Source of the DNA: Eledone cirrhosa
Taxonomy: Eukaryota
Direction: 5' to 3'
Length of the DNA stretch: 64,000 nt
Assembly (NCBI GenBank): GCA_964016885.1
Contig: OZ024742.1
Location: 183,582,001-183,646,000, forward strand
The translations under genes were made by a program, and so were the position numbers. The first letter of the stretch is position 1. The number at the start of each line of letters is the position of its first letter. The notes under the pieces were generated by a model. That model did not search any database, was not told the DNA's origin, and worked only from the letters and a program-made list of their open reading frames with translations. Shown in pieces: positions 1-64,000 of this stretch.

Positions 1-48
1 ATGTATATACGCACATACATGCATACAAAAATTTGTGAAATTATAAAA

Positions 49-577
49 CCCCTACCGATGCGACTGTTTAGTCCAGCCAGCGACTTGAAAACTCTGGTAC
101 AAACACTACACTTGTGACAATTATTGACACATAGTGCTGGGCCCATGGTACCATGTGACGACAAGTGCAGAGAGATCTCCAGATATAAAGCAATGCCTGT
201 GCCGTGAAGCTTTTATAGTGAGCACTGCACAAAACCAGTCCCACTCTCTTAACCAAGATGATATTTACCAAAATGAAGAACAAGTCAACATCATTGGATA
301 CCATCAGAGTTGCAGGTGTTATATCAGAGTTTTCCTTCTCAGAATTCTGCCTTGACAAAGGCTAAGGGGTCATCTCTCCCGCTGATTTTGGATGGCCATT
401 GACTTTTAAGAGGTCCTTTACCCTTTGACAGGTTTTGTTTTTAGTCCTGCAGGATGTCCAAAGTCACCCTCCCCACCAAGAAACCTTGGTGGGGTTGCCA
501 GTTTAGTCGCCAACGACCCGACCATGGGACAGGTTGTATTGGGATACATGTTACCAGTAGCACCAGCTGGTGACCTA
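49..577 (-). mobile_element. Non-autonomous RTE-derived bipartite retroposon, tandem copy 1 (3' end eroded)
   Basis: The minus strand reads head + segment similar to the RTE 5'UTR at 45880-46060 (GATATAACACCTGC..GATGTTGA..GAGAGTGGGA..CACAGGCATTGC) + last zinc-finger codons. Near-identical to the copies at 595 and 1241. Confidence 0.75.
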
Positions 578-594
578 ACATACATACATACATA

Positions 595-1204
595 CATGGT
601 GGTTGCCAACTCGTTTTCGAGTACGGCCACTACTTTATATCCATGTAGGAGAACCCCTACCAATGCGCTGAACGAGTGTGACTTTTTAGTCCAGCCAGCG
701 ACTTGAAAACTCTGGTTAAAACACTACACTTGTAACAATTATTGACACATAGTGCTGGGCCCATGGTACCATGTGACGACAAGTGCAGAGAGATCTCCAG
801 ATATAAAGCAATGCCTGTGCCGTGAAGCTTTTATAGTGAGAAAAGGCACTGCACAAAGCCAGTCCCACTCTCTTAACCAAGATGATATTTACCAAAAAGA
901 AGAACAAGTCAACATCATTGGATACCATCAGGGTTGCAGGTGTTATATCAGAGTTTTCTTTCTCCTAGAATTCTGCCTTGACAAAGGCTAAGGGGTCATC
1001 TCTCCCGGTGATTTTGGATGGCCATTGACTCTTAAGAGCTCCTTTGCCCTTTGACAGGTTTTGTTTTTAGTCCTGCAGGATGTCCAAAGTCACCCTCCTC
1101 ACCAAGAAATCTTGGTGGGGTTGCCAGTTTAGTCGCCAACGACCCGACCATGAGACAGGTTGTACTGGGATACATGTTACCAGTAGCACCAACTGGTGAC
1201 CTGA
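595..1204 (-). mobile_element. Non-autonomous RTE-derived bipartite retroposon, tandem copy 2 (complete)
   Basis: Carries the 5'UTR-like middle and zinc-finger codons ..RVFKSLAGLKSHTRSAHW* (RTE C-terminus: CRLCARHFGSLAGLKSHIRSQHC*). Its 3' end GGCCGTACTCGAAAACGAG..CACCATG matches the RTE 3' end GGCCATACTCGATAACGAG..CATCATG. (TATG)n tail. Confidence 0.85.
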
Positions 1205-1240
1205 CATACATACATACATACATATATACATACATACATA

Positions 1241-1810
1241 CATGGTGGCTGCCAACTCGTTTTCGAGTACGGCCACTACTTTATATCCATGTAGGAGAAC
1301 CCCTACCGATGCGCTAAACAAGTGAGACTTTTTAGTCCAGCCAGCGACTTGTAAACTCTGGTACAAACACTACAGCTGTGACAATTATTGACACATAGTG
1401 CTGGGCCCATGGTACCATGTGACGACAAGTGCCGAGAGATCTCCAGATATAAAGCAATGCCTGTGCCGTGAAGCTTTTATAGTTAGCAAAGGCACTGCAC
1501 AAAGCCAGTCCCACTCTCTTAACCAAGATGATATTTACCAAAAAGAAGAACAAGTCAACATCATTGGATACCATCAGGGTTGCAGGTGTTATATCAGAGT
1601 TTTCTTTCTCCTAGAATTCTGCCTTGACAAAGGCTAAAGGATCATCTCTCCCGCTGATTTTGGATGGCCATTGACTCTTAAGAGCTCCTTTGCCCTTTGA
1701 CAGGTTTTGTTTTTAGTCCTGCAGGATGTCCAAAGTCACCCTCCTCACCAAGAAACCTTGGTGGGGTTGCCAGTTTAGTCGCCAACGACCCGACCATGGG
1801 ACAGGTTGTA
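1241..1810 (-). mobile_element. Non-autonomous RTE-derived bipartite retroposon, tandem copy 3 (slightly 5'-truncated)
   Basis: Same structure as copy 2, flanked on both sides by (CATA)n tracts. Confidence 0.85.
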
Positions 1811-1836
1811 CATACATACATACATACATACATACA

Positions 1837-1867
<31 letters not shown>

Positions 1868-1887
1868 GTTTGTGTGTTGAATGAAAA

Positions 1888-2050
1888 CCACAGGTGGTTA
1901 AGTTGGTCGTGTGACAGGTTTCTGACTGAAATATTAACCAAGTCGCAGCTGTGTGTCATTCGCATGTGATTTCAGTTTCGAGTTCCCTCTCAATGCATGG
2001 CACCGTGGCCATGTGCCTTCCGTTATAGATATAAACTGACCATTGCCTTT
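1888..2050 (+). mobile_element. Degenerate tRNA-derived SINE remnant
   Basis: A-box-like GTGGTTAAG and B-box-like GTTTCGAGTTCC, followed by a CORE-like GGCACCGTGGCCATGTGCCTT segment. Confidence 0.4.
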
Positions 2051-2168
2051 CCTTATAAGTTCATACTACTTTCTTGGTGCTGGTCTGAGCTGAAGTAGTA
2101 AGTAAAAGGTGCAAATAAATAAATGAGTATTCGAGAAATATAAAATACAAAAAAAAAAAAAATTTTTT

Positions 2169-3655
2169 TTAAAATGATAAATGGTGTTTGTTTGCTTTGC
2201 ACATTCTCCTTACTTCTTCAGCTCCAACCAGACCAAATTTAATATATCGTGTTTTGAATACCTCTTTCTTAGCGGTTGGAGCTAAAGTATCGAATGAATA
2301 ATTTGATGTGATGATTATTGTTGTCCGTTTTACAATTTGGCTCCTTTTGAATTTAATAGCCACCGCTGTATCTGCACTTTCGAAAATCTTTTTAAAAGTT
2401 TGGAGAGTCTCCATGATCATATTAGGTTCCTTGAAGAGACAAATTTCACAGCCTACCATGTCTTGAAAGGGGAAAAAAAAGTCCCTTGCATTGTCGACGT
2501 AACCTAAAATGTTTCTCTACAGATCTTGCGATAAAGGATTTGACGATAAGGGTTCACCTTTAAGTATCAATGTGTTCTGTTTAGGGTTATTTCTGATTTA
2601 AAATGTTCCATATATCTTGAACGAATTCGTCTATATCTATGTGACTTATAATTTTGAGTGATAAAGTAGTTGAATGATATTTATTAGTATTAAATTTGTG
2701 CCAGTCCATATTTATGTATTTGGTACGAAAAGGTGTATTTAGAGTCTGTCTTGCACATATCAGCCATGTTTTTAATTATTGTTTCGTATTATGGATGAGC
2801 TAACGCAGTTAAATTGTTTCCGTTCTTATGTATGTTGCATTTCATTTTTGTGTTCTTTCCTGTCATACAAAAATTTAAGATAATTAAAAAGATTCATGTT
2901 GACCTTTTGTATTCATGAATATACCGTATTTCCCGGCGTCGAAGACCCTACTTTTTTCCTAAAATAAGTCTAAAAAATCTACCATGCGTCCTGGAGGCAG
3001 AAAAAAAATAAACAACCATGCGTCCTGGATACCGAAGGTTGTTTATTTTTTTTCAAAATTTTGGTTGTCAAAATTAGGGTGCGTCCGGGAAATATGGTAA
3101 GTTCTTTAGGATTTTTTATTATTTTGCGAGGAGTAGAGGTGTAATGTTTATCTGGTTGAATTTGTTTTTCTAAGCGCCATTGTTCCGAATATTTTACAGG
3201 CCCAGTTATTATTGTGTACTAATATTTCCTTGATTCAAGGCAAAAGTAGCTTGCCAGTGCTGCAGGAAATTTAACTTGTTGACAAGGTGGAAATTTACTT
3301 TTGTAGTTTGTAGCTTTCCAATATTCTATTCCTATATTCTGCCAGGTACTGTCTTTTGGTGGTGTTTTATCGCTTGTCACACAACATATTATGTGGAAAT
3401 GGTTTACACCATCCCAAGCCTTATTTTGACAGAGTTCAGAATTAGATCCTGGGTGAAGTATTATTATTGCTTTTCTGTTTAGTATGAAACGAAGAAGACG
3501 AGCATTTTTGTTAGGAGTATCTTGACTATCTCTATCGTTATCGTCGACATTTATATGTATTGCTGAATCAAAAGGAATACTAGCTTTTTTATCCCAACTG
3601 AATTGCGGTGGAAAAATCCATGGCTATACTGCCGTATACAATTTCTCATTTGAAC
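2169..3655 (-). pseudogene. NS1: Endogenous parvovirus/densovirus-like NS1 (HUH endonuclease + SF3 helicase), disrupted
   Basis: Manual translation gives the HUH motif GVNHFHIIC (~3390-3415) and candidate catalytic Tyr LASYF (~3245). It then gives IDEFVQDIWNILNQK, PKQNTLILKGEP..KSFIARSV (frameshifted Walker A), FPFQDMVGCEICLFKEP (Walker B region), FKKIFE..VAIKFK (motif B') and TIIITSN (motif C). Several stops and frameshifts, plus a MITE insertion. Confidence 0.9.
2924..3097. mobile_element. Tc1/mariner-pogo (Tc2-like) MITE inserted in the NS1 pseudogene
   Basis: TIRs CCGTATTTCCCGG / CCGGGAAATATGG (1 mismatch) with TA on both sides (2922-23, 3098-99). Removing it restores the NS1 frame (..KNPKELIFMNTK..). 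Confidence 0.85.
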
Positions 3656-3680
3656 CTTTAAGAAAAATAAAGGAAACTTA

Positions 3681-5466
3681 TTAACGTGTTATTGGATACG
3701 CCTCACTAGAAACAGGTTGAGCATATGTACGATAGCCTTGAGGTCATTGACAAAGTTTCATTTTCTTTTCTGGGTTTAATGACATGATCTAGTACATGTT
3801 GGTATTCTAGGATAATATCCAATGAATTGTGGTGAACCACTTGGATACTCAAAGTCAATTTCTGAGAAATAATCAACTGTTAGCAAAAATATTGTTTTAG
3901 CTGTTTTATTTTTAGCATCTAAGAAAAATATTGGATCTAGTACAGTTACTGGTGATGGATTACTAGGATTAATAGGGAATTCTGTTAGAAGACTTCTACT
4001 TGGATTATTAATGTCTGTTATAAGTCTGTCTCATTTAACATCGCTAGTATTAAGTGTCCAAAGCTTGTTGTTTTCGTAATCATTGATTTCGTGAGGCACT
4101 AACTGCACTTATTTCATTAGGCGAGATGTGACCCGTGAAGGCATCAAATTGCATGGAATTGAACCATGATGGGCTTCTGCATACCCATGTGTACTCCCAC
4201 GTCTTAAAATCCATCATTGTCCAGTATTATACATGCTAAATAATTATTTTGCGTTTACTGTTTGTTCTGTAGCAGATGGATGTATTCTGTTGTTAAAGTT
4301 GAGTGTTTCATTAGGTACAGTTCTATTTTGTTGTTTCCCCACCTTCCCTGGTTCATAGTCGTTATTAAGTTGCTTGACAGTTCTTGTTTGATTTATGAAC
4401 ATAGCTGCGTTTGTATCTACGTATGTCATTATCCAAGGTCTTGTATTGAATGTAGTATTTGTTGTAGTTGTATTCTGTACTGTTGATAATTCATCAGTTA
4501 TAGGTATTACTGACGTGAAATCCGTAACTTCTTACTATCCATGATTCACGTGGATACCAGTATGTTGGGGCCTCGTTTGCCTTGAAAATATGAGGGGGAC
4601 AAACCAACATTTGTTGATTCTTAAAGGAGCATGTTAGTATTGCTTATGGTGCCTTTCCCGGACCTTTTCACATAGTAAAAATTTACACTAATAAGATTTT
4701 ATATAGTCAAATGAAGTTCAGATATAAAAAAATAAGCTTAAAAAAATTATTATATCAAATAAGCAAAAAATAAAACATAGACGTTTGAAAAAGTGGGCGG
4801 TTGTCCCCTGGCACCCCACTGAAACAAGGCCCTTGCTTGTATTATTGTAATTCAGTTTCAGTGCATGATGCTCGTAAGTCTTTGTATGGTATTTGTACAC
4901 ATCTATGTGTGATGTTGATGTCTGTATATTTTTAGTCTTTTGTATTCCATTTATATTTAGCAATATCAATTAGTTCTGTGAATACATCTACATAATGGAA
5001 CAAAGTTCTACAGAATTTCTTGGTTACAATAGGATTCTTATCGCCTACCTGAGGCGGTGTGTCTGTTGCTATTGTGATTCCAGAGCCACCGGTCGATACT
5101 CTACTTTCGGTTCAATCATTTCTACGCTTTCTACTAGTTGTTCGTCTGTATCGTTTGAGTTTTCGATTTCACTTGTTCGTGCTTCTTGTTCTACTCGTCT
5201 CTTTTTATGATAAGGTGGCATTCATACAATTGTGTCCGAAAGGTTATTAGTGTATTTATCGAAAACTGTTTTTGTTTTTATAGCGTATTTTACTATGTTT
5301 GCATCGAAAGTATTTATGTGTTCTATATCGTTTAACAAATCGTGTGTCATCTGAGTACTGAATATTGTGTTTGTAACATGCAACATCTAATTCATTTATT
5401 GTTTTATTTTTGGATAAAATCATTAGAAAAGGGACCACAGAAATTATAACCAAGTAAATGAGACAT
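3681..5466 (-). pseudogene. VP1: Endogenous parvovirus-like capsid VP1 with N-terminal PLA2 domain, disrupted
   Basis: ATG at 5466 gives MSHLLGYNFCGPF (PLA2 Ca-loop-like), then INELDVACYKHNIQYS..DTRF (HDxxY-like helix). Gly-rich STGGSG is followed by IVTKKFCRTLFHY (betaB-like), GLSPSYFQ (alphaA-like), SYGFHVS..IPITDELSTVQNTTTTNTTFNTRPWIMTYVDTN (betaD/E-like), NTGQ..WEYTW and NPSPVTVLDPI..LTVDYFSEIDFE (betaH/I-like). Stop at 3681-3683. Confidence 0.85.
4650..4836. mobile_element. Probable DNA-transposon fragment interrupting the capsid pseudogene
   Basis: AT-rich non-coding block ending in a GC-rich, transposon-end-like motif (GGGCGGTTGTCCCCTGGCACCCCACTGAAACAAGGCCCTTG) between two capsid-like segments. 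Boundaries approximate. Confidence 0.4.
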
Positions 5467-5563
5467 TACTTACAATAAGTTTTGCTATTAAAGGAGCAGC
5501 TTTTTCTTTGAAGTATTCTGATGACATTTTTGCTGTTTTTCTTTTTTTGGTATTGATGTAAAA

Positions 5564-5800
5564 CAGCGGACGCCAACCTTTCGGACTTCAGGACCACTAA
5601 ATTCATAATTTTTAATCTCGTGGACCACTAATATGAATGTTTTTAAAAAGATAAATACATTTCTAAATTAATGATCAGAAAACTTCCATTTTATTAAACA
5701 ATACATGGATAGATGATACATACATTCTTTCATGGATGTTAGTTCTTTACTGAGAAGAAACATTTGTTAGGGGTGTTATAAAATACATTTTAACCAAATA
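5564..5800. mobile_element. hAT (Charlie-type) transposon end fragment truncating the viral element
   Basis: Begins CAGCGGACGCCAACCTTT..GGACCAC..GTGGACCAC, typical of Charlie/Buster termini. Confidence 0.55.
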
Positions 5801-5809
5801 TTATTTAGT

Positions 5810-5995
5810 ATGGAGTTATAGCCCTTTACGTTCTGAGGTCAAATCCTGCCGAGGTTAACTTAGCCTTTCATCCTTACGGGTCGATCGGTGGATTGGGAGT
5901 ATCGGTAGAGGGTCGGACGCCATGCTTTCCAGCATAGTTACGTCCCTTTATGATCTGAGTTCAAATCCCGCCGAGGTTGACTTTGCCTTTCACCC
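5810..5995 (+). mobile_element. Two adjacent partial tRNA-derived Deu/Nin-domain-type SINEs
   Basis: GAGTTCAAATCCCGCCGAGGTTGACTTTGCCTTTCA core, shared with the full copies at 41305 and 63790. Confidence 0.85.
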
Positions 5996-6158
5996 CTTTC
6001 TAACTTCCCCTTTATTACTTTTTGTCCTTCTCTTGTAGAATCTACTGTGATCAGACCTGGAGTGGAATGGCCTCCCCTAAGCTTCCAATGGCCAAGAAAC
6101 ATCATATGTCACTGAGTCACTACTACTTCACCAGGAGTTGCGGTACCATACCATATAT

Positions 6159-8345
<2,187 letters not shown>

Positions 8346-8745
8346 ATATGAAATATGAAAAATGGCGTGCTGCGCTGTTGCACATGGGGTACATATGAAT
8401 AAAATTAGTGCTTCATCAGTGATCTTCCAACCGTTATTGGTATTTCTTCGCATTAAAGATCATATACCTCTGCAATAACTAAAGAAAGTTATTGGGACAC
8501 GTAAAATAGGGTGAAGCGAGCGAGACATGTAAACAAACAGAGATGGTAATGCAACGGAAGAGAAGAAACAAGTTCGTGATATCTATGAACTTAAGTTCGG
8601 TGAAATCATAGACGAGAGATACAGATCATCCGACCTGGGTGAGATGTGAGCGAGAAAAGGATTTCACACAGGTCAAACGGGAGGAAGTGAGAGAGGGGGA
8701 GTAGCAGATAGTGAGTGAGTGAAAGTGTGAGGAAGAGGCCAGATT

Positions 8746-8881
<136 letters not shown>

Positions 8882-9214
8882 CATAATTACATAAACGGAG
8901 AAAGCTAATAGCGATACTCCGAACAATTTCCAACTCACTCAACAACATATATATATATATATATACAAAGTGTTGTCTCGAAAATCGAGTTGAAGCAGAG
9001 GTGCATTAGATTTTATAGAATAATTTGAAACTCAACGTAAAGGAAAACTGCCAAGACATAAAGACTTACCTCAAGGACAGGAATAAGCGGCTGGAAGTGT
9101 GTAGGTCTAGAAAAGTGGAGCAGAGAGAGAAGATGGAAGAATGGAAAGGAACTAGACAAAACACACACACACCTACACACACACACACACAAACACATAT
9201 ATACACATATATGC

Positions 9215-9255
<41 letters not shown>

Positions 9256-9262
<7 letters not shown>

Positions 9263-9836
9263 TGTCTCCTAGTTATTGAGTATGGCCATTGCACGATATA
9301 CCATTATTAATAATTATTAATTAATTAATTCTATCGTGCAATGCCGGTGCGTGAAGTTATTTTTTAAAGTGAGGAAAGGCTGTGCACTGAGCCAATCCCA
9401 CTCTCTGAGCGACAGTAGCTATAACTCGAAAAGAAGAAAAGATCAACATCATCGGTAACTACTGAGCCGCATGTTTTATATCGGAGTTATCCCAGTTTCC
9501 TGAGTTGCCTTCTCCTAGAAGAATGCCTAGGGGTCTTTCACTCCCAGGGGTTTAACCGCGCGATCGGGTGTCCAGTCCGACTATTTCTATGTCCCCGCGC
9601 ATATACATACACATGTACATGTGCATATACATATTTACACACTTTTGGATGGCCGTTGACTCTTATGAGTTCTTCCGCCCTTTGTCATGTTTTGTTTTTT
9701 GTCCTGCAGGGTGTCCAAAATCACCCTCCTCACCAAGTAAACTTGGTGGTGTTGCTGGTTTAGTCGCCGACGACCCGACTATGCGACAGGGTGTACTGGG
9801 TTACATGTTACCAGTAACACTCAAGAGTGACCCGAC
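9256..9836 (-). mobile_element. Non-autonomous internally deleted derivative of the RTE LINE (head + 5'UTR + 3' terminus)
   Basis: 9333-9600 is the reverse complement of the RTE 5'UTR (45781-46058). 9256-9295 matches the RTE 3' end (49957-49996). 9643-9836 matches the head of the 49-1810 copies. (TA)n tail. Confidence 0.9.
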
Positions 9837-10014
9837 ACACACACACACTTATATATATATATATAAATAAATATATAAATGCGTGTGTGTGTGCATATAT
9901 ACATATATATATATATATATATAGGAACGATCGACTTTCGTCAAATCGGACCGAGGGAACAATGTTTCCGTTGGTCTTTCCAATTGCTAATACTATCTAT
10001 CGGTCGCAACTCCA

Positions 10015-15870: not shown

Positions 15871-16081
15871 TTAGTTCCACATTTACATTAGCAATTGCAC
15901 ATGTATGCACATAATAATAATAATTATAATAATCTCCGCCACCATCACCATCACCATCAGCATCGTTAACACCATCAATATTACAAGTAAGGCTAACACT
16001 AACACTTCCGACGTCACCAACAGGACTACCGTGACCATCACAACAACGAATATAGCCTTGGTGTATGTTATCATCATACTA

Positions 16082-16450
16082 ATAATTGTTTCTACTATTG
16101 GCACAAGACCAGCAATTACCCAGTACATTACTGGTACTTTATTTTATCGACCCCCGTAAGGATGAAAGGCAAAGTTAACCTCGGCGGGCGGGATTTGAAC
16201 TCAGACCATAAAGGACCGTAACTCTATGCTGCAAAGCATGGTGTCCGACTCTCTACCGATACTGCCAATAATTGTTTCTACTTTAGGCACAAGGCCAGCA
16301 ATTATCCAGTGCATTACTGGTACTTTATTTTATCGACCCCGTAAGGATGAAAGGCAAAGTCAACCTTGGTGGGATTTGAACTCAGATCGTAAAGGGACGT
16401 AACTATGCTGGAAAGCATGGCGTCCGACCTTCTACCGATACTGCCAATAC
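16082..16450 (-). mobile_element. Two tandem tRNA-derived Deu/Nin-type SINEs
   Basis: Two consecutive reverse-complement copies of the SINE consensus. Confidence 0.9.
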
Positions 16451-18664: not shown

Positions 18665-21120
18665 TTATACTTCTCAACGTGGTCCAGGTGGACCACCGGT
18701 GGTCCACATAGCATTTCTAGTGGTCCACAGAGAATTCGTAGCCATAAAAAAATTGTAGCCATTTCACAAAAATGTAACTAATATAATATTTTGTTTAATT
18801 ACACACATGTCCATTATATTTGAAAATTTCGAAATTACGTAGGTATTATGCAGTGCTATATTTATTTCATTTTTTTTATTCATATAAAAAATGGTACTTG
18901 TAACGAATGTACGTACCGTGAAATCTTCTTCGTTGATAACTAAAACGGACAGACAGACGGACATTCGGCAAATTATAGTAAGATATTCAAGAGAATAGCA
19001 AAGACTCGGTACATATATCCGCCACAAGGGCCAATAGAACACTACACAATATTGTTTGATAATAAATTTGATATTTCTAATTTATAGAAATAAAGTATTT
19101 ATTTTTTTTTTTTTTTCATATCAGTTGTAAGAATGTCTGAACCAACTGCTAAAAAGGCAAAACTGAGGAATTACACAGAAGAATTTATCATGTTTGGCTT
19201 TGTATTTGTAAACTCATAACCTATGTGTCTTGAATGTGGTGCCATCTTGACAAATCATTCCATGAAGAAAGTTAAGCTGGAGCAGCACCAGAAATCAAAG
19301 CATCCATCATCTGTTGGTAAAGATAGGGAATATTTTGAGAATAAAAATAAAAGACAGCCAGTCAAACTATCCGACTTTGTAAAGAAGACGAATTCTGCAA
19401 AAGCAAAGACACTCAAACCAAGTTATTTGGCCTCTGAAATTATTGCCAAGGTTGCAGCACCTCAGATTTATGGTGTGAAGCTTGTCAAGCCTTCTATGAT
19501 AGCTTGTGCAAATGAGGTTCTGGGAAAAGATGCTGCATCTACCCTGAGTACAATTCCACTTTCAAATGACACTATTACAAGAAGACAGGATGAAATGTCT
19601 AATTTTGTTGAGGAGAAGATGGTGGAAATTCTGCAAAAGACAAAGTTTTCTATCCAGGTTGATGAGAGCACAATTCATAACCAAGCTATCCTTCTGGTCT
19701 ATGTCAGATTCATCCATGATATAAGGGAAGAAATGTTATTCATTAAAAGTTTGCCTGAAACTACTAATGGAGAAGATATATTCAATGAAGTAATGCAGTA
19801 TTTTAATGATAAAAATATTCCATTGACTAATTTGATCAACATTGCATCAGATGGAACTGCAGCCATGACTGGAAAAGTGAAAGGCTTTGTTTCTAGAATG
19901 AAATCAGTTGCTCCTCACATCTTTTATATACATTGCATTATCCACAGACAGCATTTGGTTGCTAAGAATATTGGAGGAGACATGCAAGAAGCACTCAACA
20001 CTGCCATACATGCAATTAACTTTGTAAAATCAAACTCAGTGAATAATAGATTTTTTGTGCAATTCTGTGAAGATGAAAATTTTAAAACCCTATTGCTTCA
20101 CACAGAAGTAAGATGGTTGTCAAAAGGCCTGAGCCTTGAAAGACTAGTGAATTTGTGGGAACCATTAACCAACTTTCTCATGTTCAAGTCCCAAATGACT
20201 CATTACAACTCCAAGAAGCAAGCTGATACAGCGAAGGAAATTTTGGAAAGACTTCCTGAGTTTAAATCAAAAATATTCTACCTGAGTAATATTTTTAAAA
20301 CAGTGAATCTGTTTAACTTGGAGCTGCAAGGAAGAAGATCAGATTTAGTCACCTGTGCTCAGAAGATAAAAGGCTATATGGGGAAATTGAAATTTTGGAA
20401 AAAACAGTTTGAGAAAAAAAATTTAGCATCATTTCAAAATTTCAACACCACTGCTCCTACATCAGAATGCATTGCTGCATGCATTACCCATCTTGAAGGT
20501 CTTCATGTAGACTTTGAGAGAAGATACAATGATCTATTAAAGATGGATTATCCACTTTGGTTTGTAGACCTAGAAAATTATGAGCCAGGAGATGAAAATG
20601 TTGAGTTGGCTGAAATGTTGTTGGACTTGAAAGAGAATGTAAAACTGAGAAGAGTTGACAAAGAAGGTGTCATTGCCTACACATCGATAAAGGACTGACA
20701 CCCAAATATTTTTCAACATGTAGAAGCAAGCATCATTTCTTTCCCTACCACATGGATGGTGGAATCTGGATTTTCAGCTGTTGTGGATGTTTTCAGTAGA
20801 AAAAGAAATAAATTAGATCTCAACAGCAGAGGAACTATCAGACTAAGACTGAATGACTTCATCAAATTTATTATGATATCTTGTGTCAGAAACACCAAGA
20901 TCAAGGTAGTCACTAGCTGAATGGACTAAAACTGAATGACTTCATCAAAATTGATTTTGATATCCTGTGTTTATCCTTGTTTACTAAAATAAATTTTAAA
21001 GTGTAAATAGACTATTTTGTCTTTTCATTAAGTATTTTAGTGTGAAAATGGAACAGCTTAAAAGTAAAAGTAGGAGTGAAGAAAAAATGGTCCATGGGCT
21101 GAAAATGTTGAGAAGTACTG
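18665..21120 (+). mobile_element. hAT superfamily (Buster/Charlie/SPIN-like) DNA transposon, near full length
   Basis: TIRs TACTTCTCAAC.. / ..GTTGAGAAGTACTG, subterminal GGTCCA motifs, and an internal transposase. The right flank GCATAGAT fits nnnTAnnn. Confidence 0.9.
19133..20917 (+). pseudogene. hAT/Buster transposase with premature stops (largest open part 19223-20698)
   Basis: MSEPTAKKAKLRNY..FGF..*PMCLEC..HQKSKH (BED finger), FSIQVDEST, ASDG, HCIIHRQHL, HTEVRWLSKG. After TGA at 20696 the frame continues with FPTTWMVESGFS..KRNKL (dimerisation region). Confidence 0.9.
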
Positions 21121-25905: not shown

Positions 25906-28900
25906 AATATAGATAGTATGTGTGTCTAGAGTGTGTTTACGGCTGTGTCTGTCAGACAGGAACACGTCTGTAAAGGTTACAATATAGATAGTATGTGTGT
26001 CTAGAGTGTGTTTACGGCTGTGTCTGTCAGACAGGAACACGTCTGTAAAGGTTACAATATAGATAGTATGTGTGTCTAGAGTGTGTTTACGGCTGTGTCT
26101 GTCAGGCAGGGACATGTCTGTAAAGGTTACAATATAGATGGTATGTGTGTCTAGAGTGTGTTTACGGCTGTCTGTCAGACAGGAACATGTCTGTAAAGGT
26201 TACAGTATAGATAGTATGTGTGTCTAGAGTGTGTTTACGGCTGTGTCTGTTAGACAGGAACATGTCTGTAAAGGTTACAATATAGATAGTATGTGTGTCT
26301 AGAGTGTGCTTACGGCTGTGTCTGTCAGACAGGAACACGTCTGTAAAGGTTACAATATAGATGGTATGTGTGTCTAGAGTGTGTTTACGGCTGTGTCTGT
26401 CAGACAGGAACACGTCTGTAAAGGTTACAATATAGATGGTATGTGTGTCTAGAGTGTGTTTACGGCTGTGTCTGTCAGGCAGGGACACGTCTGTAAAGGT
26501 TACAATATAGATGGTATGTGTGTCTAGAGTGTGTTTACGGCTGTGTCTGTCAGACAGGAACACGTCTGTAAAGGTTACAATATAGATAGTATGTGTGTCT
26601 AGAGTGTGTTTACGGCTGTGTCTGTCAGGCAGGGACACGTCTGTAAAGGTTACAATATAGATAGTATGTGTGTCTAGAGTGTGTTTACGGCTGTGTCTGT
26701 CAGGCAGGGACACGTCTGTAAAGGTTACAATATAGATGGTATGTGTGTCTAGAGTGTGTTTACGGCTGTGTCTGTCAGACAGGAACACGTCTGTAAAGGT
26801 TACAATATAGATAGTATGTGTGTCTAGAGTGTGTTTACGGCTGTGTCTGTCAGGCAGCAACACGTCTGTAAAGGTTACAATATAGATAGTATGTGTGTCT
26901 AGAGTGTGTTTACGGCTGTGTCTGTCAGACAGGAACACGTCTGTAAAGGTTACAATATAGATAGTATGTGTGTCTAGAGTGTGTTTACGGCTGTGTCTGT
27001 CAGGCAGGGACACGTCTGTAAAGGTTACAATATAGATGGTATGTGTGTCTAGAGTGTGTTTACGGCTGTGTCTATCAGACAGGAACACGTCTGTAAAGGT
27101 TACAATATAGATAGTATGTGTGTCTAGAGTGTGTTTACGGCTGTGTCTGTCAGGCAGGAACACGTCTGTAAAGGTTACAATATAGATAGTATGTGTGTCT
27201 AGAGTGTGTTTACGGCTGTGTCTGTCAGACAGGAACACGTCAGTAAAGGTTACAATATAGATAGTATGTGTGTCTAGAGTGTGTTTACGGCTGTGTCTGT
27301 CAGGCAGGGACACGTCTGTAAAGGTTACAATATAGATGGTATGTGTGTCTAGAGTGTGTTTACGGCTGTGTCTGTCAGACAGGAACACGTCTGTAAAGGT
27401 TACAATATAGATGGTATGTGTGTCTAGAGTGTGTTTACGGCTGTGTCTGTCAGGCAGGGACACGTCTGTAAAGGTTACAATATAGATGGTATGTGTGTCT
27501 AGAGTGTGTTTACGGCTGTGTCTGTCAGACAGGAACACGTCTGTAAAGGTTACAATATAGATAGTATGTGTGTCTAGAGTGTGTTTACGGCTGTGTCTGT
27601 CAGGCAGGGACACGTCTGTAAAGGTTACAATATAGATAGTATGTGTGTCTAGAGTGTGTTTACGGCTGTGTCTGTCAGGCAGGGACACGTCTGTAAAGGT
27701 TACAATATAGATGGTATGTGTGTCTAGAGTGTGTTTACGGCTGTGTCTGTCAGACAGGAACACGTCTGTAAAGGTTACAATATAGATAGTATGTGTGTCT
27801 AGAGTGTGTTTACGGCTGTGTCTGTCAGACAGGAACACGTCTGTAAAGGTTACAATATAGATAGTATGTGTGTCTAGAGTGTGTTTACGGCTGTGTCTGT
27901 CAGGCAGGGACACGTCTGTAAAGGTTACAATATAGATGGTATGTGTGTCTAGAGTGTGTTTACGGCTGTGTCTATCAGACAGGAACACGTCTGTAAAGGT
28001 TACAATATAGATAGTATGTGCGTCTAGAGTGTGTTTACGGCTGTGTCTGTCAGGCAGGAACACGTCTGTAAAGGTTACAATATAGATAGTATGTGTGTCT
28101 AGAGTGTGTTTACGGCTGTGTCTGTCAGACAGGAACACGTCAGTAAAGGTTACAATATAGATAGTATGTGTGTCTAGAGTGTGTTTACGGCTGTGTCTGT
28201 CAGACAGGAACACGTCTGTAAAGGTTACAATATAGATGGTATGTGTGTCTAGAGTGTGTTTACGGCTGTGTCTGTCAGACAGGGACACGTCTGTAAAGGT
28301 TACAATATAGATGGTATGTGTGTCTAGAGTGTGTTTACGGCTGTGTCTGTCAGACAGGGACACGTCCGTAAAGGTTACAATATAGATGGTATGTGTGTCT
28401 AGAGTGTGTTTACGGCTGTGTCTGTCAGGCAGGAACACGTCTGTAAAGGTTACAATATAGATAGTATGTGTGTCTAGAGTGTGTTTACGGCTGTGTCTGT
28501 CAGACAGGAACACGTCTGTAAAGGTTACAATATAGATGGTATGTGTGTCTAGAGTGTGTTTACGGCTGTGTCTGTCAGACAGGGACACGTCTGTAAAGGT
28601 TAAAATATAGATAGTATGTGTGTCTAGAGTGTGTTTACGGCTGTGTCTGTCAGACAGGGACACGTCTGTAAAGGTTACAATATAGATAGTATGTGTGTCT
28701 AGAGTGTGTTTACGGCTGTGTCTGTCAGGCAGGGACATGTCTGTAAATGTTACAATATAGATGGTATGTGTGTCTAGAGTGTGTTTACGGCTGTGTCTGT
28801 CAGGCAGGGACATGTCTGTAAATGTTACAATATAGATGGTATGTGTGTCTAGAGTGTGTTTACGGCTGTGTCTGTCAGAGAGGGACATGTCTGTAAAGGT

Positions 28901-31900
28901 TACAGTATAGATGGTATGTGTGTCTAGAGTGTGTTTACGGCTGTGTCTGTCAGACAGGGACATGTCTGTAAAGGTTACAATATAGATGGTATGTGTGTCT
29001 AGAGTGTGTTTACGGCTGTGTCTGTCAGACAGGGACACGTCTGTAAAGGTTACAATATAGATAGTATGTGTGTCTAGAGTGTGTTTACGGCTGTGTCTGT
29101 CAGGCAGGGACACGTCTGTAAAGGTTACAATATAGATAGTATGTGTGTCTAGAGTGTGTTTACGGCTGTGTCTGTCAGACAGGAACACGTCTGTAAAGGT
29201 TACAATATAGATAGTATGTGTGTCTAGAGTGTGTTTACGGCTGTGTCTGTCAGGCAGGGACACGTCTGTAAAGGTTACAATATAGATGGTATGTGTGTCT
29301 AGAGTGTGTTTACGGCTGTGTCTGTCAGGCAGGGACACGTCTGTAAAGGTTACAATATAGATGGTATGTGTGTCTAGAGTGTGTTTACGGCTGTGTCTGT
29401 CAGACAGGAACACGTCTGTAAAGGTTACAATATAGATAGTATGTGTGTCTAGAGTGTGTTTACGGCTGTGTCTGTCAGGCAGGGAGACGTCTGTAAAGGT
29501 TACAATATAGATAGTATGTGTGTCTAGAGTGTGTTTACGGCTGTGTCTGTCAGACAGGAACACGTCTGTAAAGGTTACAATATAGATAGTATGTGTGTCT
29601 AGAGTGTGTTTACGGCTGTGTCTGTCAGGCAGGGACACGTCTGTAAAGGTTACAATATAGATGGTATGTGTGTCTAGAGTGTGTTTACGGCTGTGTCTGT
29701 CAGGCAGGGACACGTCTGTAAAGGTTACAATATAGATGGTATGTGTGTCTAGAGTGTGTTTACGGCTGTGTCTGTCAGACAGGAACACGTCTGTAAAGGT
29801 TACAATATAGATAGTATGTGTGTCTAGAGTGTGTTTACGGCTGTGTCTGTCAGGCAGGGAGACGTCTGTAAAGGTTACAATATAGATAGTATGTGTGTCT
29901 AGAGTGTGTTTACGGCTGTGTCTGTCAGACAGGAACACGTCTGTAAAGGTTACAATATAGATAGTATGTGTGTCTAGAGTGTGTTTACGGCTGTGTCTGT
30001 CAGGCAGGGACACGTCTGTAAAGGTTACAATATAGATGGTATGTGTGTCTAGAGTGTGTTTACGGCTGTGTCTGTCAGGCAGGGACACGTCTGTAAAGGT
30101 TACAATATAGATGGTATGTGTGTCTAGAGTGTGTTTACGGCTGTGTCTGTCAGGCAGGGACACGTCTGTAAAGGTTACAATATAGATGGTATGTGTGTCT
30201 AGAGTGTGTTTACGGCTGTGTCTGTCAGACAGGGACACGTCCGTAAAGGTTACAATATAGATGGTATGTGTGTCTAGAGTGTGTTTACGGCTGTGTCTGT
30301 CAGGCAGGAACACGTCTGTAAAGGTTACAATATAGATAGTATGTGTGTCTAGAGTGTGTTTACGGCTGTGTCTGTCAGACAGGAACACGTCTGTAAAGGT
30401 TACAATATAGATGGTATGTGTGTCTAGAGTGTGTTTACGGCTGTGTCTGTCAGACAGGGACACGTCTGTAAAGGTTAAAATATAGATAGTATGTGTGTCT
30501 AGAGTGTGTTTACGGCTGTGTCTGTCAGACAGGGACACGTCTGTAAAGGTTACAATATAGATAGTATGTGTGTCTAGAGTGTGTTTACGGCTGTGTCTGT
30601 CAGGCAGGGACATGTCTGTAAATGTTACAATATAGATGGTATGTGTGTCTAGAGTGTGTTTACGGCTGTGTCTGTCAGGCAGGGACATGTCTGTAAATGT
30701 TACAATATAGATGGTATGTGTGTCTAGAGTGTGTTTACGGCTGTGTCTGTCAGAGAGGGACATGTCTGTAAAGGTTACAGTATAGATGGTATGTGTGTCT
30801 AGAGTGTGTTTACGGCTGTGTCTGTCAGACAGGGACATGTCTGTAAAGGTTACAATATAGATGGTATGTGTGTCTAGAGTGTGTTTACGGCTGTGTCTGT
30901 CAGACAGGGACACGTCTGTAAAGGTTACAATATAGATAGTATGTGTGTCTAGAGTGTGTTTACGGCTGTGTCTGTCAGGCAGGGACACGTCTGTAAAGGT
31001 TACAATATAGATAGTATGTGTGTCTAGAGTGTGTTTACGGCTGTGTCTGTCAGACAGGAACACGTCTGTAAAGGTTACAATATAGATAGTATGTGTGTCT
31101 AGAGTGTGTTTACGGCTGTGTCTGTCAGGCAGGGACACGTCTGTAAAGGTTACAATATAGATGGTATGTGTGTCTAGAGTGTGTTTACGGCTGTGTCTGT
31201 CAGGCAGGGACACGTCTGTAAAGGTTACAATATAGATGGTATGTGTGTCTAGAGTGTGTTTACGGCTGTGTCTGTCAGGCAGGGACACATCTGTAAAGGT
31301 TACAATATAGATGGTATGTGTGTCTAGAGTGTGTTTACGGCTGTGTCTGTCAGGCAGGGACACGTCTGTAAAGGTTACAATATAGATAGTATGTGTGTCT
31401 AGAGTGTGTTTACGGCTGTGTCTGTCAGGCAGGGACACGTCTGTAAAGGTTACAGTATAGATAGTATGTGTGTCTAGAGTGTGTTTACGGCTGTGTCTGT
31501 CAGACAGGAACACGTCTGTAAAGGTTACAATATAGATAGTATGTGTGTCTAGAGTGTGTTTACGGCTGTGTCTGTCAGGCAGGGACACGTCTGTAAAGGT
31601 TACAATATAGATGGTATGTGTGTCTAGAGTGTGTTTACGGCTGTGTCTGTCAGGCAGGGACACGTCTGTAAAGGTTACAATATAGATGGTATGTGTGTCT
31701 AGAGTGTGTTTACGGCTGTGTCTGTCAGACAGGAACACGTCTGTAAAGGTTACAATATAGATAGTATGTGTGTCTAGAGTGTGTTTACGGCTGTGTCTGT
31801 CAGGCAGGGAGACGTCTGTAAAGGTTACAATATAGATAGTATGTGTGTCTAGAGTGTGTTTACGGCTGTGTCTGTCAGACAGGAACACGTCTGTAAAGGT

Positions 31901-34900
31901 TACAATATAGATAGTATGTGTGTCTAGAGTGTGTTTACGGCTGTGTCTGTCAGGCAGGGACACGTCTGTAAAGGTTACAATATAGATGGTATGTGTGTCT
32001 AGAGTGTGTTTACGGCTGTGTCTGTCAGGCAGGGACACGTCTGTAAAGGTTACAATATAGATGGTATGTGTGTCTAGAGTGTGTTTACGGCTGTGTCTGT
32101 CAGACAGGAACACGTCTGTAAAGGTTACAATATAGATAGTATGTGTGTCTAGAGTGTGTTTACGGCTGTGTCTGTCAGGCAGGGAGACGTCTGTAAAGGT
32201 TACAATATAGATAGTATGTGTGTCTAGAGTGTGTTTACGGCTGTGTCTGTCAGACAGGAACACGTCTGTAAAGGTTACAATATAGATAGTATGTGTGTCT
32301 AGAGTGTGTTTACGGCTGTGTCTGTCAGGCAGGGACACGTCTGTAAAGGTTACAATATAGATGGTATGTGTGTCTAGAGTGTGTTTACGGCTGTGTCTGT
32401 CAGGCAGGGACACGTCTGTAAAGGTTACAATATAGATGGTATGTGTGTCTAGAGTGTGTTTACGGCTGTGTCTGTCAGGCAGGGACACGTCTGTAAAGGT
32501 TACAATATAGATGGTATGTGTGTCTAGAGTGTGTTTACGGCTGTGTCTGTCAGGCAGGGACACGTCTGTAAAGGTTACAATATAGATGGTATGTGTGTCT
32601 AGAGTGTGTTTACGGCTGTGTCTGTCAGGCAGGGACACGTCTGTAAAGGTTACAATATAGATGGTATGTGTGTCTAGAGTGTGTTTACGGCTGTGTCTGT
32701 CAGACAGGAACACGTCTGTAAAGGTTACAATATAGATGGTATGTGTGTCTAGAGTGTGTTTACGGCTGTGTCTGTCAGGCAGGGACACGTCTGTAAAGGT
32801 TACAATATAGATGGTATGTGTGTCTAGAGTGTGTTTACGGCTGTGTCTGTCAGACAGGAACACGTCTGTAAAGGTTACAATATAGATAGTATGTGTGTCT
32901 AGAGTGTGTTTACGGCTGTGTCTGTCAGGCAGGGACACGTCTGTAAAGGTTACAATATAGATGGTATGTGTGTCTAGAGTGTGTTTACGGCTGTGTCTGT
33001 CAAACAGGAACACGTCTGTAAAGGTTACAATATAGATAGTATGTGTGTCTAGAGTGTGTTTACGGCTGTGTCTGTCAGGCAGGGACACGTCTGTAAAGGT
33101 TACAATATAGATGGTATGTGTGTCTAGAGTGTGTTTACGGCTGTGTCTGTCAGACAGGAACACGTCTGTAAAGGTTACAATATAGATGGTATGTGTGTCT
33201 AGAGTGTGTTTACGGCTGTGTCTGTCAGGCAGGGACACGTCTGTAAAGGTTACAATATAGATGGTATGTGTGTCTAGAGTGTGTTTACGGCTGTGTCTGT
33301 CAGACAGGAACACGTCTGTAAAGGTTACAATATAGATAGTATGTGTGTCTAGAGTGTGTTTACGGCTGTGTCTGTCAGGCAGGGACACGTCTGTAAAGGT
33401 TACAATATAGATGGTATGTGTGTCTAGAGTGTGTTTACGGCTGTGTCTGTCAAACAGGAACACGTCTGTAAAGGTTACAATATAGATAGTATGTGTGTCT
33501 AGAGTGTGTTTACGGCTGTGTCTGTCAGGCAGGGACACGTCTGTAAAGGTTACAATATAGATGGTATGTGTGTCTAGAGTGTGTTTACGGCTGTGTCTGT
33601 CAGACAGGAACACGTCTGTAAAGGTTACAATATAGATGGTATGTGTGTCTAGAGTGTGTTTACGGCTGTGTCTGTCAGACAGGAACACGTCTGTAAAGGT
33701 TACAATATAGATGGTATGTGTGTCTAGAGTGTGTTTACGGCTGTGTCTGTCAGACAGGGACACGTCTGTAAAGGTTACAATATAGATAGTATGTGTGTCT
33801 AGAGTGTGTTTACGGCTGTGTCTGTCAGGCAGGGACACGTCTGTAAAGGTTACAATATAGATGGTATGTGTGTCTAGAGTGTGTTCACGGTTGTGTCTGT
33901 CAGACAGGGACACGTCTGTAAAGGTTACAATATAGATGGTATGTGTGTCTAGAGTGTGTTTACGGTTGTGTCTGTCAGGCAGGAACACGTCTGTAAAGGT
34001 TACAATATAGATGGTATGTGTGTCTAGAGTGTGTTTACGGTTGTGTCTGTCAGACAGGAACACGTCTGTAAAGGTTACAATATAGATAGTATGTGTGTCT
34101 AGAGTGTGTTTACGGCTGTGTCTGTCAGACAGGGACACGTCTGTAAAGGTTACAATATAGATGGTATGTGTGTCTAGAGTGTGTTTACGGTTGTGTCTGT
34201 CAGGCAGGAACACGTCTGTAAAGGTTACAATATAGATAGTATGTGTGTCTAGAGTGTGTTTACGTCTTTGTCTGTCAGACAGGGACATGTCTGTAAAGGT
34301 TACAATATAGATGGTATGTGTGTCTAGAGTGTGTTTACGTCTGTGTCTGTCAGACAGGGACATGTCTGTAAAGGTTACAATATAGATGGTATGTGTGTCT
34401 AGAGTGTGTTTACGGCTGTGTCTGTCAGACAGGGACATGTCTGTAAAGGTTACAATATAGATGGTATGTGTGTCTAGAGTGTGTTTACGTCTGTGTCTGT
34501 CAGACAGGGACACGTCTGTAAAGGTTACAATATAGATAGTATGTGTGTCTAGAGTGTGTTTACGGCTGTGTCTGTCAGACAGGAACACGTCTGTAAAGGT
34601 TACAATATAGATAGTATGTGTGTCTAGAGTGTGTTTACGGTTGTGTCTGTCAGGCAGGGACACGTCTGTAAAGGTTACAATATAGATGGTATGTGTGTCT
34701 AGAGTGTGTTTACGGTTGTGTCTGTCAGACAGGAACACGTCTGTAAAGGTTACAATATAGATGGTATGTGTGTCTAGAGTGTGTTTACGGCTGTGTCTGT
34801 CAGACAGGGACACGTCTGTAAAGGTTACAATATAGATGGTATGTGTGTCTAGAGTGTGTTTACGGCTGTGTCTGTCAGACAGGGACACGTCTGTAAAGGT

Positions 34901-37900: not shown

Positions 37901-38000
37901 TACAATATAGATAGTATGTGTGTCTAGAGTGTGTTTACGGCTGTGTCTGTCAGACAGGGACACGTCTGTAAAGGTTACAATATAGATGGTATGTGTGTCT
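25906..38000. repeat. Homogeneous 75-bp tandem satellite, about 161 units
   Basis: Unit AATATAGATRGTATGTGTGTCTAGAGTGTGTTTACGGCTGTGTCTGTCAGRCAGGRACACGTCTGTAAAGGTTAC. Degenerate monomers flank it at ~25385-25610 and ~38000-38100. Confidence 0.98.
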
Positions 38001-38256
38001 CAATGCATGTGTTTGTCAGACATAGATATTGATGAAAGGACCAGTATGTGGATATTGCGTGTGTTTATACATATTTTATCATAGATATATGTATGGAACT
38101 GTAATACCCGTTGGAGTCGCTGGAGCAATGTAGTGAGAAGTGTGTGAGAGAGAGGGAGAGAGGGCAAAACAAAGAGGTAGAGAGAGAGAGAGAGTATTGG
38201 CCACAAGTTCAGTTAATATTGCCTAGACAAAATGCATCGAAGACTATGCCTAGATT

Positions 38257-38339
<83 letters not shown>

Positions 38340-38426
38340 GTGTGTGTGTGTGTGTGTAATTGGTGTGAGATGCTTAAAGCGTCCGTAAGCGGTATGCCGC
38401 TTGGAAACTCTGCTTCGTAGAATCGA

Positions 38427-38521
38427 GACATATCTGAGGATCTTGCGATTTCAGAGTAAGGTTCGATCATTGCATCGATCGTGCCTCGAGCTGCTCGCCA
38501 GAGAAACGATTGTAATATGTC
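38427..38521 (+). ncRNA. Type I hammerhead ribozyme motif (HHR-A) with extended stem II
   Basis: Stem I GACATAT/ATATGTC, core CTGAGGA, stem II TCT.GCGA/TCGC.AGA, GAAAC-GATT-GTA cleavage triplet, followed by AATAAA and (TA)n. Confidence 0.7.
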
Positions 38522-38636
38522 TAATAAATCTTATTCGTCGCACCACTGATTCTCCGTTTCTTATGTGATATATATATATATATATATATTAATGAAAAAG
38601 AACAAAGGAACTATTATGACATTATAACAAGTTTAT

Positions 38637-38683
38637 TGCCGACAGCCGTTTCGTCCGACCATATGGTGGGACTTTTCAAGGCA
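38637..38683 (-). ncRNA. Minimal type I hammerhead ribozyme motif (HHR-B, mirror copy)
   Basis: Reverse complement of 40758-40804. Confidence 0.7.
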
Positions 38684-40757: not shown

Positions 40758-40804
40758 TGCCTTGAAAAGTCCCACCATATGGTCGGACGAAACGGCTGTC
40801 GGCA
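40758..40804 (+). ncRNA. Minimal type I hammerhead ribozyme motif (HHR-B)
   Basis: Stem I TGCC/GGCA, core TTGAAAA (U3-A8 covariant of CUGANGA), stem II GTCC/GGAC, GAAAC-GGCT-GTC, then AATAAA and (TA)n as in Penelope-like 3' ends. Confidence 0.72.
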
Positions 40805-40848
40805 ATAAACTTGTTATAATGTCATAATAGTTCCTTTGTTCTTTTTCA

Positions 40849-40908
<60 letters not shown>

Positions 40909-40967
40909 TATATATATATATCACATAAGAAACGGAGAATCAGTGGTGCGACGAATAAGATTTATTA

Positions 40968-41062
40968 GACATATTACAATCGTTTCTCTGGCGACCAGCT
41001 CGAGGCACGATCGATGCAATGATCGAACCTGACTCTGAAATCGCAAGATCCTCAGATATGTC
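40968..41062 (-). ncRNA. Hammerhead ribozyme motif (HHR-A, mirror copy)
   Basis: Reverse complement of 38427-38521. Confidence 0.7.
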
Positions 41063-41128
41063 TCGATTCTACGAAGCAGAGTTTCCAAGCGGCATACCGC
41101 TTACGGACGCTTTAAGCATCTCGCACCA

Positions 41129-41224
<96 letters not shown>

Positions 41225-41304
41225 AATCTAGGCATGGTCTTCGATGCATTTTGTCTAGGCAATATTAACTGATCTTGTGGCCAATACATTAAAGTATCTA
41301 ATTA

Positions 41305-45735: not shown

Positions 45736-49998
<4,263 letters not shown>

Positions 49999-63589: not shown

Positions 63590-63976
63590 ATCGGGGTCGA
63601 TAAAATAAAGTACCAGTAATGTACTGGGTAATTGCTGGCCTTGTGCCTAAAATAGAAACAATTAATGTATCTAATTAACATATACACATATACATATATT
63701 CACACACACACACACACACACGCACACACACACACATAGACACACACACACACACATATATATATAGTCGACATTAAAGTATCTAATTAGGGCGGTGGAT
63801 TGGCAGTATCGGTAGAGGTTCGGACGCCATGCTTTGACGCACAGAGTTACGGCCCTTGTCATTCTGAGTTCAAATCCCGCCGAGGTTAACTTTACCTTTC
63901 ATCCTTACGGGGTCGATAAAATAAAGTACCAGTAATGTACTGGGTAATTGCTGGCCTTGTGCCAAAAGTAGAAACC
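63590..63976 (+). mobile_element. Partial (63590-63665) and full (63790-63976) Deu/Nin-type SINEs
   Basis: Consensus match. The full copy is flanked by CATTAAAGTATCTAATTA / CATTAATGTATCTAATTA (TSD-like). Confidence 0.88.
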
Positions 63977-64000
63977 ATTAATGTATCTAATTAACATGTA

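Follow-up and report, generated by a model that had tools for sequence, protein, structure and literature searches.

Introduction

In monosense parvoviruses the NS gene lies before the VP gene, and in adeno-associated virus (AAV) rep lies before cap. Here we analyse a 64,000-nucleotide stretch of genomic DNA (contig OZ024742.1, positions 183,582,001 to 183,646,000; hereafter the window, numbered from its first letter). It holds on its minus strand an endogenous parvoviral element in which alignments to relatives place VP first and NS1 directly downstream on the same strand, a layout that is neither the usual NS-then-VP monosense order nor the ambisense one. The supplement of Francois et al. 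2016 (PMC5013282) lists parvovirus-related sequences from Octopus bimaculoides, Octopus vulgaris, Sepia and Euprymna. These are O. bimaculoides NS fragments (KOF62817 and KOF81493/A0A0L8GWZ8, one of them next to a transposable element on a contig of genomic DNA), a VP transcript from O. vulgaris (JR446908) and expressed sequence tags from Sepia and Euprymna; the mollusc sequences branch outside the known genera. The passages of PMC5013282 covered here contain no discussion of gene order, and a term search of PMC10433990 returned no mention of cephalopods.

The capsids of parvoviruses differ in whether they carry a phospholipase A2 (PLA2) domain. According to a 2026 paper (PMC13426907), which uses a six-subfamily taxonomy, capsid PLA2 is a derived trait of two subfamilies plus one transfer, and some megaparvoviruses have a PLA2 open reading frame (ORF) upstream of NS1. 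PMC11357303 describes Penaeus monodon metallodensovirus (PmMDV), IHHNV (the virus of infectious hypodermal and haematopoietic necrosis) and hepatopancreatic parvovirus (HPV) as lacking PLA2. The Acheta domesticus segmented densovirus (AdSDV) is presented in PMC10267136 as the first in its group to bear a PLA2, having received the domain by transfer as a separate ORF.

Taken by itself, the identity of the locus as an endogenous parvoviral element is, in our view, almost certain. Considered simply as a parvovirus fossil from an octopus, it contributes little, this kind having been in print since 2016. Its two joined genes, on the other hand, reveal a layout with the capsid first and NS1 directly after. 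This junction, together with a PLA2 on a shrimp-densovirus-like capsid core, makes the locus a candidate for recording a genome type not yet described. Our preferred reading, to which we give a probability of about 0.6, is that it preserves an unclassified lineage of marine parvoviruses whose native order was capsid-first. A broader proposal is more tentative and falls a little short of even odds. It posits a parvovirus lineage of subfamily rank in cephalopods and in other marine hosts, still or recently active. Its genes would lie natively capsid-first on one strand of a linear or circular genome, and its shrimp-densovirus-like capsid core would be joined to the PLA2 of a VP1 unique region (VP1u), a further independent case on a capsid type otherwise without PLA2.

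A decayed element with the capsid gene first

Both genes survive in collinear pieces, as a first-pass annotation made from the sequence had claimed. Frameshift-aware comparison aligned 493 of the 536 residues of the O. vulgaris 'capsid' protein P0115 (CAI9722213; P numbers denote relatives found in our searches) at 50.1% identity, from about 5450 to about 3680. For NS1, the aligned part lies between about 3540 and 2240 and covers 370 residues within the first 430 of P0001 (tblastn E 2.3e-35). In the VP alignment there are 7 frame changes, 6 stops inside the gene and an insertion of about 280 nt, and that of NS1 holds 6 frame changes, 2 stops and one insertion of about 180 nt. This gives about 13 frameshifts, 8 stops and two insertions over both genes, although the frame-change and stop counts depend on the penalties chosen in the comparison. 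The two cassettes are separate and extend over about 3.2 kb, including about 0.45 kb of insertions and with the tail of NS1 lost, in line with a two-cassette parvoviral genome of 4-6 kb. Their GC content is 0.32-0.35. None of the seven relatives tested by tblastn has another match in the 64 kb.

The element sits between a tandem repeat of about 640 bp with microsatellites (59-1866) and a dispersed repeat of about 190 nt (5807-5995). These host-repeat flanks indicate integration in host DNA, and a miniature inverted-repeat transposable element (MITE) lies within NS1 among the frameshifts and stops. The element is dead, as shown by its frameshifts, stops and insertions, by HN in place of HD in its PLA2 and by its split Walker A region, and it encodes nothing today. 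It is also old, since the two later insertions had time to decay themselves. The annotation's description of an old, non-functional parvoviral element thus holds. The capsid-first order with its short junction, the two insertions, a palindrome and the shrimp-densovirus-like capsid core were absent from it.

The junction is short. The VP match reaches the last residue of P0115 at 3684, and stops follow at 3683 and 3680. NS1 similarity begins either at 3668 (residue 1 of P0113) or at the ATG at 3649 (residue 1 of P0004). Within the junction we found no hairpin (fold z -1.4 and 0.2), no AATAAA or ATTAAA signal and no TATA-like box. If a normal NS-VP virus had integrated as a concatemer, two telomeres would be expected between the end of VP and the next NS start. 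A gap of 12-31 nt with neither hairpin nor poly(A) signal leaves no space for them. For comparison, PMC11357303 gives inverted terminal repeats (ITRs) of 416 nt each for PmMDV. We found no description of a capsid-first monosense parvovirus in the open-access literature, the scope of our search.

Table 1. Features of the element and its borders (positions in the window; strand left empty where none applies).
Feature	Positions	Strand	Evidence
Imperfect palindrome of 163 nt, MITE or viral end hairpin	2074..2236		arms 83% complementary; -30.9 kcal/mol (z -4.9), a stability reached by none of 200 shuffles
Broken NS1 gene, 3' truncated	2235..3668	-	41.9% identity to P0001 over 370 aligned residues; E <= 0.001 for 98 relatives (best 4.3e-32)
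SF3 helicase: Walker A region 2582-2521 (frame-broken), Walker B-like LFKEP 2438-2424, motif C IITSN 2315-2301	2235..2750	-	Pfam, alignments
MITE in NS1 with inverted repeats at its termini and TA at either end	2922..3099		14 of 16 terminal nt match; fold z -7.6; alignment jump
Probable HUH nuclease motifs NHFH (3404-3393) and downstream Tyr, ALASYF (3260-3243)	3243..3404	-	conservation among aligned rows
Junction from VP stop to NS1 start, 12-31 nt	3649..3683	-	stops 3683 and 3680, ATG 3649
Broken VP gene: ATG 5466, N-terminal PLA2, capsid core, stop 3683-3681	3681..5466	-	alignment to P0115; tblastn E 3.6e-52
Capsid-core stretch resembling PmMDV (6WH3) and PstDV (3N7X) capsids	4433..4556	-	sequence match of relatives
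Non-viral insertion in VP of about 270-280 nt, probable old MITE, ends approximate	4563..4836		alignment jump, query 223 to 224 across about 4840-4560
PLA2 catalytic helix ELDVACYKHNIQY, HN instead of HD	5355..5393	-	Pfam PF08398 E 0.0014 on this frame (5259-5462), below curated cut-off
PLA2 calcium-loop motif GYNFCGP	5431..5451	-	aligns to YKYCGP of P0115/P0116
AT-rich stretch (28% GC) upstream of VP, viral leader or host DNA, with neither hairpin nor NS1 tail	5467..5806		fold and profile scan
Dispersed repeat, SINE-like, partial copies, bounds element	5807..5995	+	13 matches to the ~190-nt repeat within the 64-kb window

The capsid gene

The two VP1u PLA2 motifs reported earlier, the calcium loop and the catalytic helix, are both present on the minus strand (table 1). 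They lie in different frames and jointly match the PLA2 of the relatives (tblastn E 5.7e-8). The frame with the helix is by itself a weak match to the parvoviral PLA2 family, for which P0115 reaches E 4.5e-13. In P0115 and P0116 the domain, a PLA2 of VP1u type, forms the N-terminus of the capsid ORF; intact relatives have the catalytic HD, whereas the pair has decayed in the window copy. The best PDB match of the relatives' PLA2 is AAV VP1u (profile E 1.2e-8).

The remainder of the protein points elsewhere. The relatives' capsid core weakly matches the shrimp virus capsid 6WH3 at E 7.2e-5 singly and 1.4e-6 by profile, 3N7X at 0.0066 singly and 0.06 by profile, and 9NEK at 0.01. These core matches span 53-72 residues, and the relatives' capsid matches the Pfam family IHHNV_capsid at E 0.0029. 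The window's own core piece also has 6WH3 as its top match, but at E 0.26, and its capsid-core pieces have no Pfam match. Together, these sequence matches make a capsid jelly roll likely.

This combination differs from each of the closest described systems. PmMDV (Metallovirinae) and Penaeus stylirostris densovirus (PstDV)/IHHNV (Penstyl genus) have the only solved capsids matched by the PLA2-free core (6WH3 and 3N7X, over 53-63 residues). PstDV belongs to the Penbrevirinae. This lineage does not share the PLA2-free capsid of Metallovirinae and Penbrevirinae: the shrimp viruses lack PLA2 (PMC11357303) and have capsid chains of 329-369 aa, whereas this VP has about 535 aa and an N-terminal PLA2. 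AAV gives the top PDB matches for both PLA2 and the SF3 helicase of NS1 but has no capsid-core match. The megaparvoviruses resembling SwaBA-MePV-1 also have a PLA2-containing ORF upstream of NS1; in their description (PMC13426907), however, that ORF is separate, a PLA2-free VP follows NS1, and the genome is of about 6.4 kb with four ORFs. In the window element, PLA2 lies within the capsid ORF, and the capsid ORF abuts NS1. A PLA2 fused to a PmMDV/PstDV-like core would be another case beyond those given in PMC13426907.

The O. vulgaris capsid models share with this VP their PLA2-plus-core layout and length as well as the identity given above. Two of them are intact with the catalytic HD, whereas the window copy is long dead and, by similarity, is not an ortholog of these models. 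There are five such models (P0115 and P0117-P0120; CAI9722210, 12, 13, 14 and 15), with nearly consecutive accessions in one record of 176.7 Mb and 0-2 residues apart. The two intact ones have the full 536-aa ORF and an undamaged catalytic pair in the PLA2. The group may be a tandem array of recent origin or a host gene that has been retained.

The NS1 gene and its lost tail

Among the 14 pieces scanned against Pfam, two gave parvoviral matches, and three others matched unrelated families at E 0.05-0.2. The open frame 2172-2513 matches Parvo_NS1 (PF01057) at E 2.4e-6, above the cut-off, and relatives do so down to E 1e-29. A profile of NS1 relatives retrieved AAV Rep (E 7.7e-19), another parvoviral NS1 (5.4e-17) and papillomavirus E1 (1.6e-11) from the PDB; no Rep of circular Rep-encoding single-stranded (CRESS) DNA viruses was listed in the Pfam or PDB searches. 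By these matches the SF3 domain is parvoviral. The best matches overall are to parvoviral NS1/Rep and VP, rather than to CRESS Rep or the PLA2X of Polintons, which the annotation had named as what would overturn its reading.

The N-terminal domain of NS1 has no Pfam or PDB-sequence match and no Foldseek match at E <= 0.001, and its best VIA hit (Z 4.4) is an unrelated fold. Its motifs are conserved among relatives. The HxH is invariant in 10 of 10 aligned rows, and the Tyr about 50 residues on is found in all eight rows that reach it, some of the rows being near-duplicates. In a low-confidence model the HxH falls on a predicted strand and the Tyr on a predicted helix. The arrangement is probably that of HUH motifs II and III, judging from this conservation.

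The first-pass annotation proposed a compact NS1 of about 440 codons, a notion ruled out by where the homology ends and by a missing conserved tail. Similarity to NS1 stops at RYIKF (2235), precisely where the AT-rich (30% GC) palindrome starts, and the last 21 or so codons, down to 2172, are read-through into the palindrome. Full-length close relatives have 500-605 aa. Of 13 extracted relatives, 10 extend beyond the point where an LNPxxWxxLF-like tail lies, and nine of these 10 show it recognisably; a search with a tail profile found none next to the element. Going by these alignments, NS1 is truncated, with the palindrome in place of the conserved tail. The palindrome may be a third MITE or an end hairpin of the virus carried in by a deletion. 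We also considered a circular permutation of NS1 that would put its tail upstream of VP. The faint signal seen at 5587-5516 (E 0.49-4.4) was no better than chance when the profile was used (1.0 bit), and we rejected this possibility.

Relatives and placement

With one frame of the NS1 region as query, HMMER retrieved 98 proteins at E <= 0.001 from 1.84 billion representatives; a word-index search with a single NS1 frame gave none among 1901 candidates. The best NS1 relatives are P0001, a 593-aa ENA protein, and P0002, an O. bimaculoides 'parvovirus NS1 helicase' (XP_014789984 belongs to the same cluster). Another O. bimaculoides protein is P0008. The search with one frame of the upstream region retained 2 of 2611 candidates as capsid relatives, P0115 and the 525-aa ENA protein P0116. 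We looked up cluster names for 30 of these proteins (28 NS1 matches and the two capsids). Five of the clusters had names: three from Octopus, one from Hymenolepis and one from a chaphamaparvovirus, the only classified virus among the 30.

A tree of the SF3 domain was built from 97 rows, namely 96 of 100 relatives and the 92-residue open frame of the window (P0004, P0013, P0025 and P0032 had too little SF3 and were dropped). The window groups with P0001, P0006 and the O. bimaculoides proteins P0002/P0099 (support 99/91), inside a clade of 18 rows (100/100). P0008 belongs to this clade as well, whereas the rows of the chaphamaparvovirus and of Hymenolepis fall outside it. Since a single classified virus is among its rows, the tree does not permit assignment to a subfamily.

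For both genes the nearest named relatives are proteins from Octopus genomes, which makes a cephalopod host probable, the strength at which the annotation had put it. Its further suggestion, that the locus would document a parvovirus-like infection of this host lineage, does not make it the first such record, as the supplement of PMC5013282 testifies. Cephalopod parvoviral elements being known in kind, that reason for interest is weaker. The Octopus sequences of that supplement share the NS1 clade of the window: P0002/P0099 are 52-53% identical to it over about 115 residues, and the supplement row for KOF62817 reads like P0002. Those listed records are, however, single fragments (172-246 aa; 565 nt), whereas here both genes stand together at one locus, so that the layout can be read.

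P0001 and P0116 are both intact, and each is encoded on an ENA contig 4017 nt long; the two ORFs add up to 3360 nt. If the contig is the same, its size would fit one two-gene, near-complete exogenous genome, and the two proteins possibly belong to one such record. In the broader proposal, the intact proteins of the 4017-nt contigs and the near-identical O. vulgaris capsid copies suggest that the lineage is active or was so recently. The element also connects a virus from the environment, and the intact capsid genes of O. vulgaris, with a probable cephalopod host. The same clade also contains P0012/P0105-P0111, eight near-identical NS1 proteins of 489-535 aa with several per ENA contig (up to 1 Mb), an amplified endogenous family in another eukaryote.

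Weighing the gene order

Several observations weigh against a native capsid-first parvovirus. The order is seen at one locus only, and one locus cannot settle between a native order and its rivals. The exact start of NS1 is weakly fixed (E 0.10 for the onset at 3668 and 7.3e-4 for that at 3649). We found no matching pair of terminal repeats: where a linear genome would have hairpins at its ends, there is one palindrome only, cutting into NS1, and it has no counterpart on the opposite side of the element. In the Atlas comparison the capsid clusters tied (Smaco_capsid 0.96, Denso_VP4/VP1_2 0.96), and the helicase clusters were level (Cressdnaviricota 0.93, parvoviral 0.93). The AlphaFold model of P0115 is poor (pLDDT 32) and did not confirm the jelly roll, a failure that we attribute to a shallow alignment, since the capsid profile search recovered only its two source proteins (2 of 4242 candidates). 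The model of the NS1 N-terminal domain is also poor (pLDDT 50) and did not confirm the HUH fold. Consequently, of the four domains announced by the annotation, PLA2 and SF3 stand, while jelly roll and HUH are carried by sequence evidence only.

The most serious rival is an ordinary NS-then-VP virus. An integrated head-to-tail concatemer, or a circularised replication product, would have lost telomeres, promoter and poly(A) signal at the junction, bringing VP beside the NS1 of the next copy. Integrated AAV concatemers with deleted ITRs are known, and arrays occur in this lineage, as the near-identical capsid models with consecutive accessions in one O. vulgaris record indicate. The lost NS1 tail further implies at least one deletion at the locus. 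Nevertheless, both deletion ends would have to fall within about 30 nt of the ORF ends and yet spare the last VP codon and the start of NS1. The NS1 tail expected before VP in such an array was undetected at 5466-5830 (1.0 bit, rank 15 among matches from 3192 tiles), though decay could hide it. We regard this explanation as unlikely, while giving it more weight than the others. The order could also reflect merely where a circle was cut, if the source was a CRESS-like circular genome with a parvovirus-type NS1 and a PLA2 capsid, opened upstream of VP at integration. The short intergenic gap, the absence of paired terminal repeats and the Cressdnaviricota and smacovirus capsid clusters among the Atlas neighbours would fit a circle. 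The element's matches, however, are parvoviral NS1/Rep, AAV VP1 PLA2 and shrimp parvovirus capsids, with CRESS Rep not listed, and no origin stem-loop was found upstream of VP (z -0.5 to -0.9), which leaves this origin improbable.

That two separate insertions, or a later host rearrangement, juxtaposed an unrelated VP and NS1 is conceivable in a region so rich in repeats and rearrangements. We consider it very improbable, since the two genes share strand, GC content and level of decay, have no host repeat between them, and both point to Octopus proteins and to ENA contigs of equal size. Chance motifs, or a transposon or Polinton-type element, could be suspected from the empty fold searches and from the lack of Pfam matches for the N-terminal domain and the window's capsid pieces. 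The homology searches and alignments of both genes effectively refute this, full-length proteins being matched at E of about 1e-52 for the capsid and 1e-35 for NS1; in addition, no polymerase, integrase or protease was found among the seven other long ORFs scanned.

Under a native capsid-first order, the ancestor would have been a small single-stranded DNA virus of the parvovirus kind that inserted into the germline. It would have replicated by an HUH/SF3 NS1. Its capsid would have been a T=1 jelly-roll shell, with a PLA2 on the largest capsid protein that served escape from endosomes. The layout would have been monosense, with VP followed 12-31 nt on by NS1, and NS1 might have been expressed by splicing, from an internal promoter within VP or by re-initiation. 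Integration would have occurred via host repair, and the insert would never have been kept by selection. Two transposon-like insertions and the loss of the NS1 tail followed.

Later insertions and other features of the window

The MITE within NS1 is presumably of Tc1/mariner-pogo type, going by the TA rule. The insertion in VP has imperfect terminal repeats (10 of 14 nt), no clear target duplication and a single copy in the window. Nested in this way, the insertions make the element datable via orthologous loci.

The tandem repeat on one side of the element consists of three copies of a unit of about 640 bp (92-95%) at 59-1810, parts of which recur at 9313-9876 and 45780-46078. The SINE-like (short interspersed nuclear element) repeat on the other side gave its 13 matches at 87-97% (5807-5995, 14650, 16081-16448, 23067, 23945, 41307, 53457, 62026 and 63592-63980). 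It is probably typical of Octopus genomes, although four searched supplement files of PMC4758252 held no match to it. Rfam gave no matches on window positions 1-10000, and a tRNA scan gave none. Beside TA microsatellites at 7190-7370 and 7441-7590 we noted by eye perfect local inverted duplications, possibly assembly artefacts.

Other mobile and repetitive elements lie further away. An open frame of 492 codons at 19220-20698 (plus strand) has a weak DUF659 match (E 0.0035) and is presumably a hAT-type transposase. An inverted repeat of 1.15 kb (92%; 38194-39340 and 40110-41287) with an AT-rich spacer of 770 nt resembles a foldback element. An apparently intact long interspersed nuclear element lies at 45974-49723 (plus strand), with an open frame of 1249 codons encoding endonuclease, reverse transcriptase and C2H2 zinc fingers. 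Finally, a satellite with 161 copies of a 75-bp unit (25906-38000) carries a minus-strand ORF of 3945 codons, which needs no selection to stay open because only 4 of 225 single changes create a stop in that frame.

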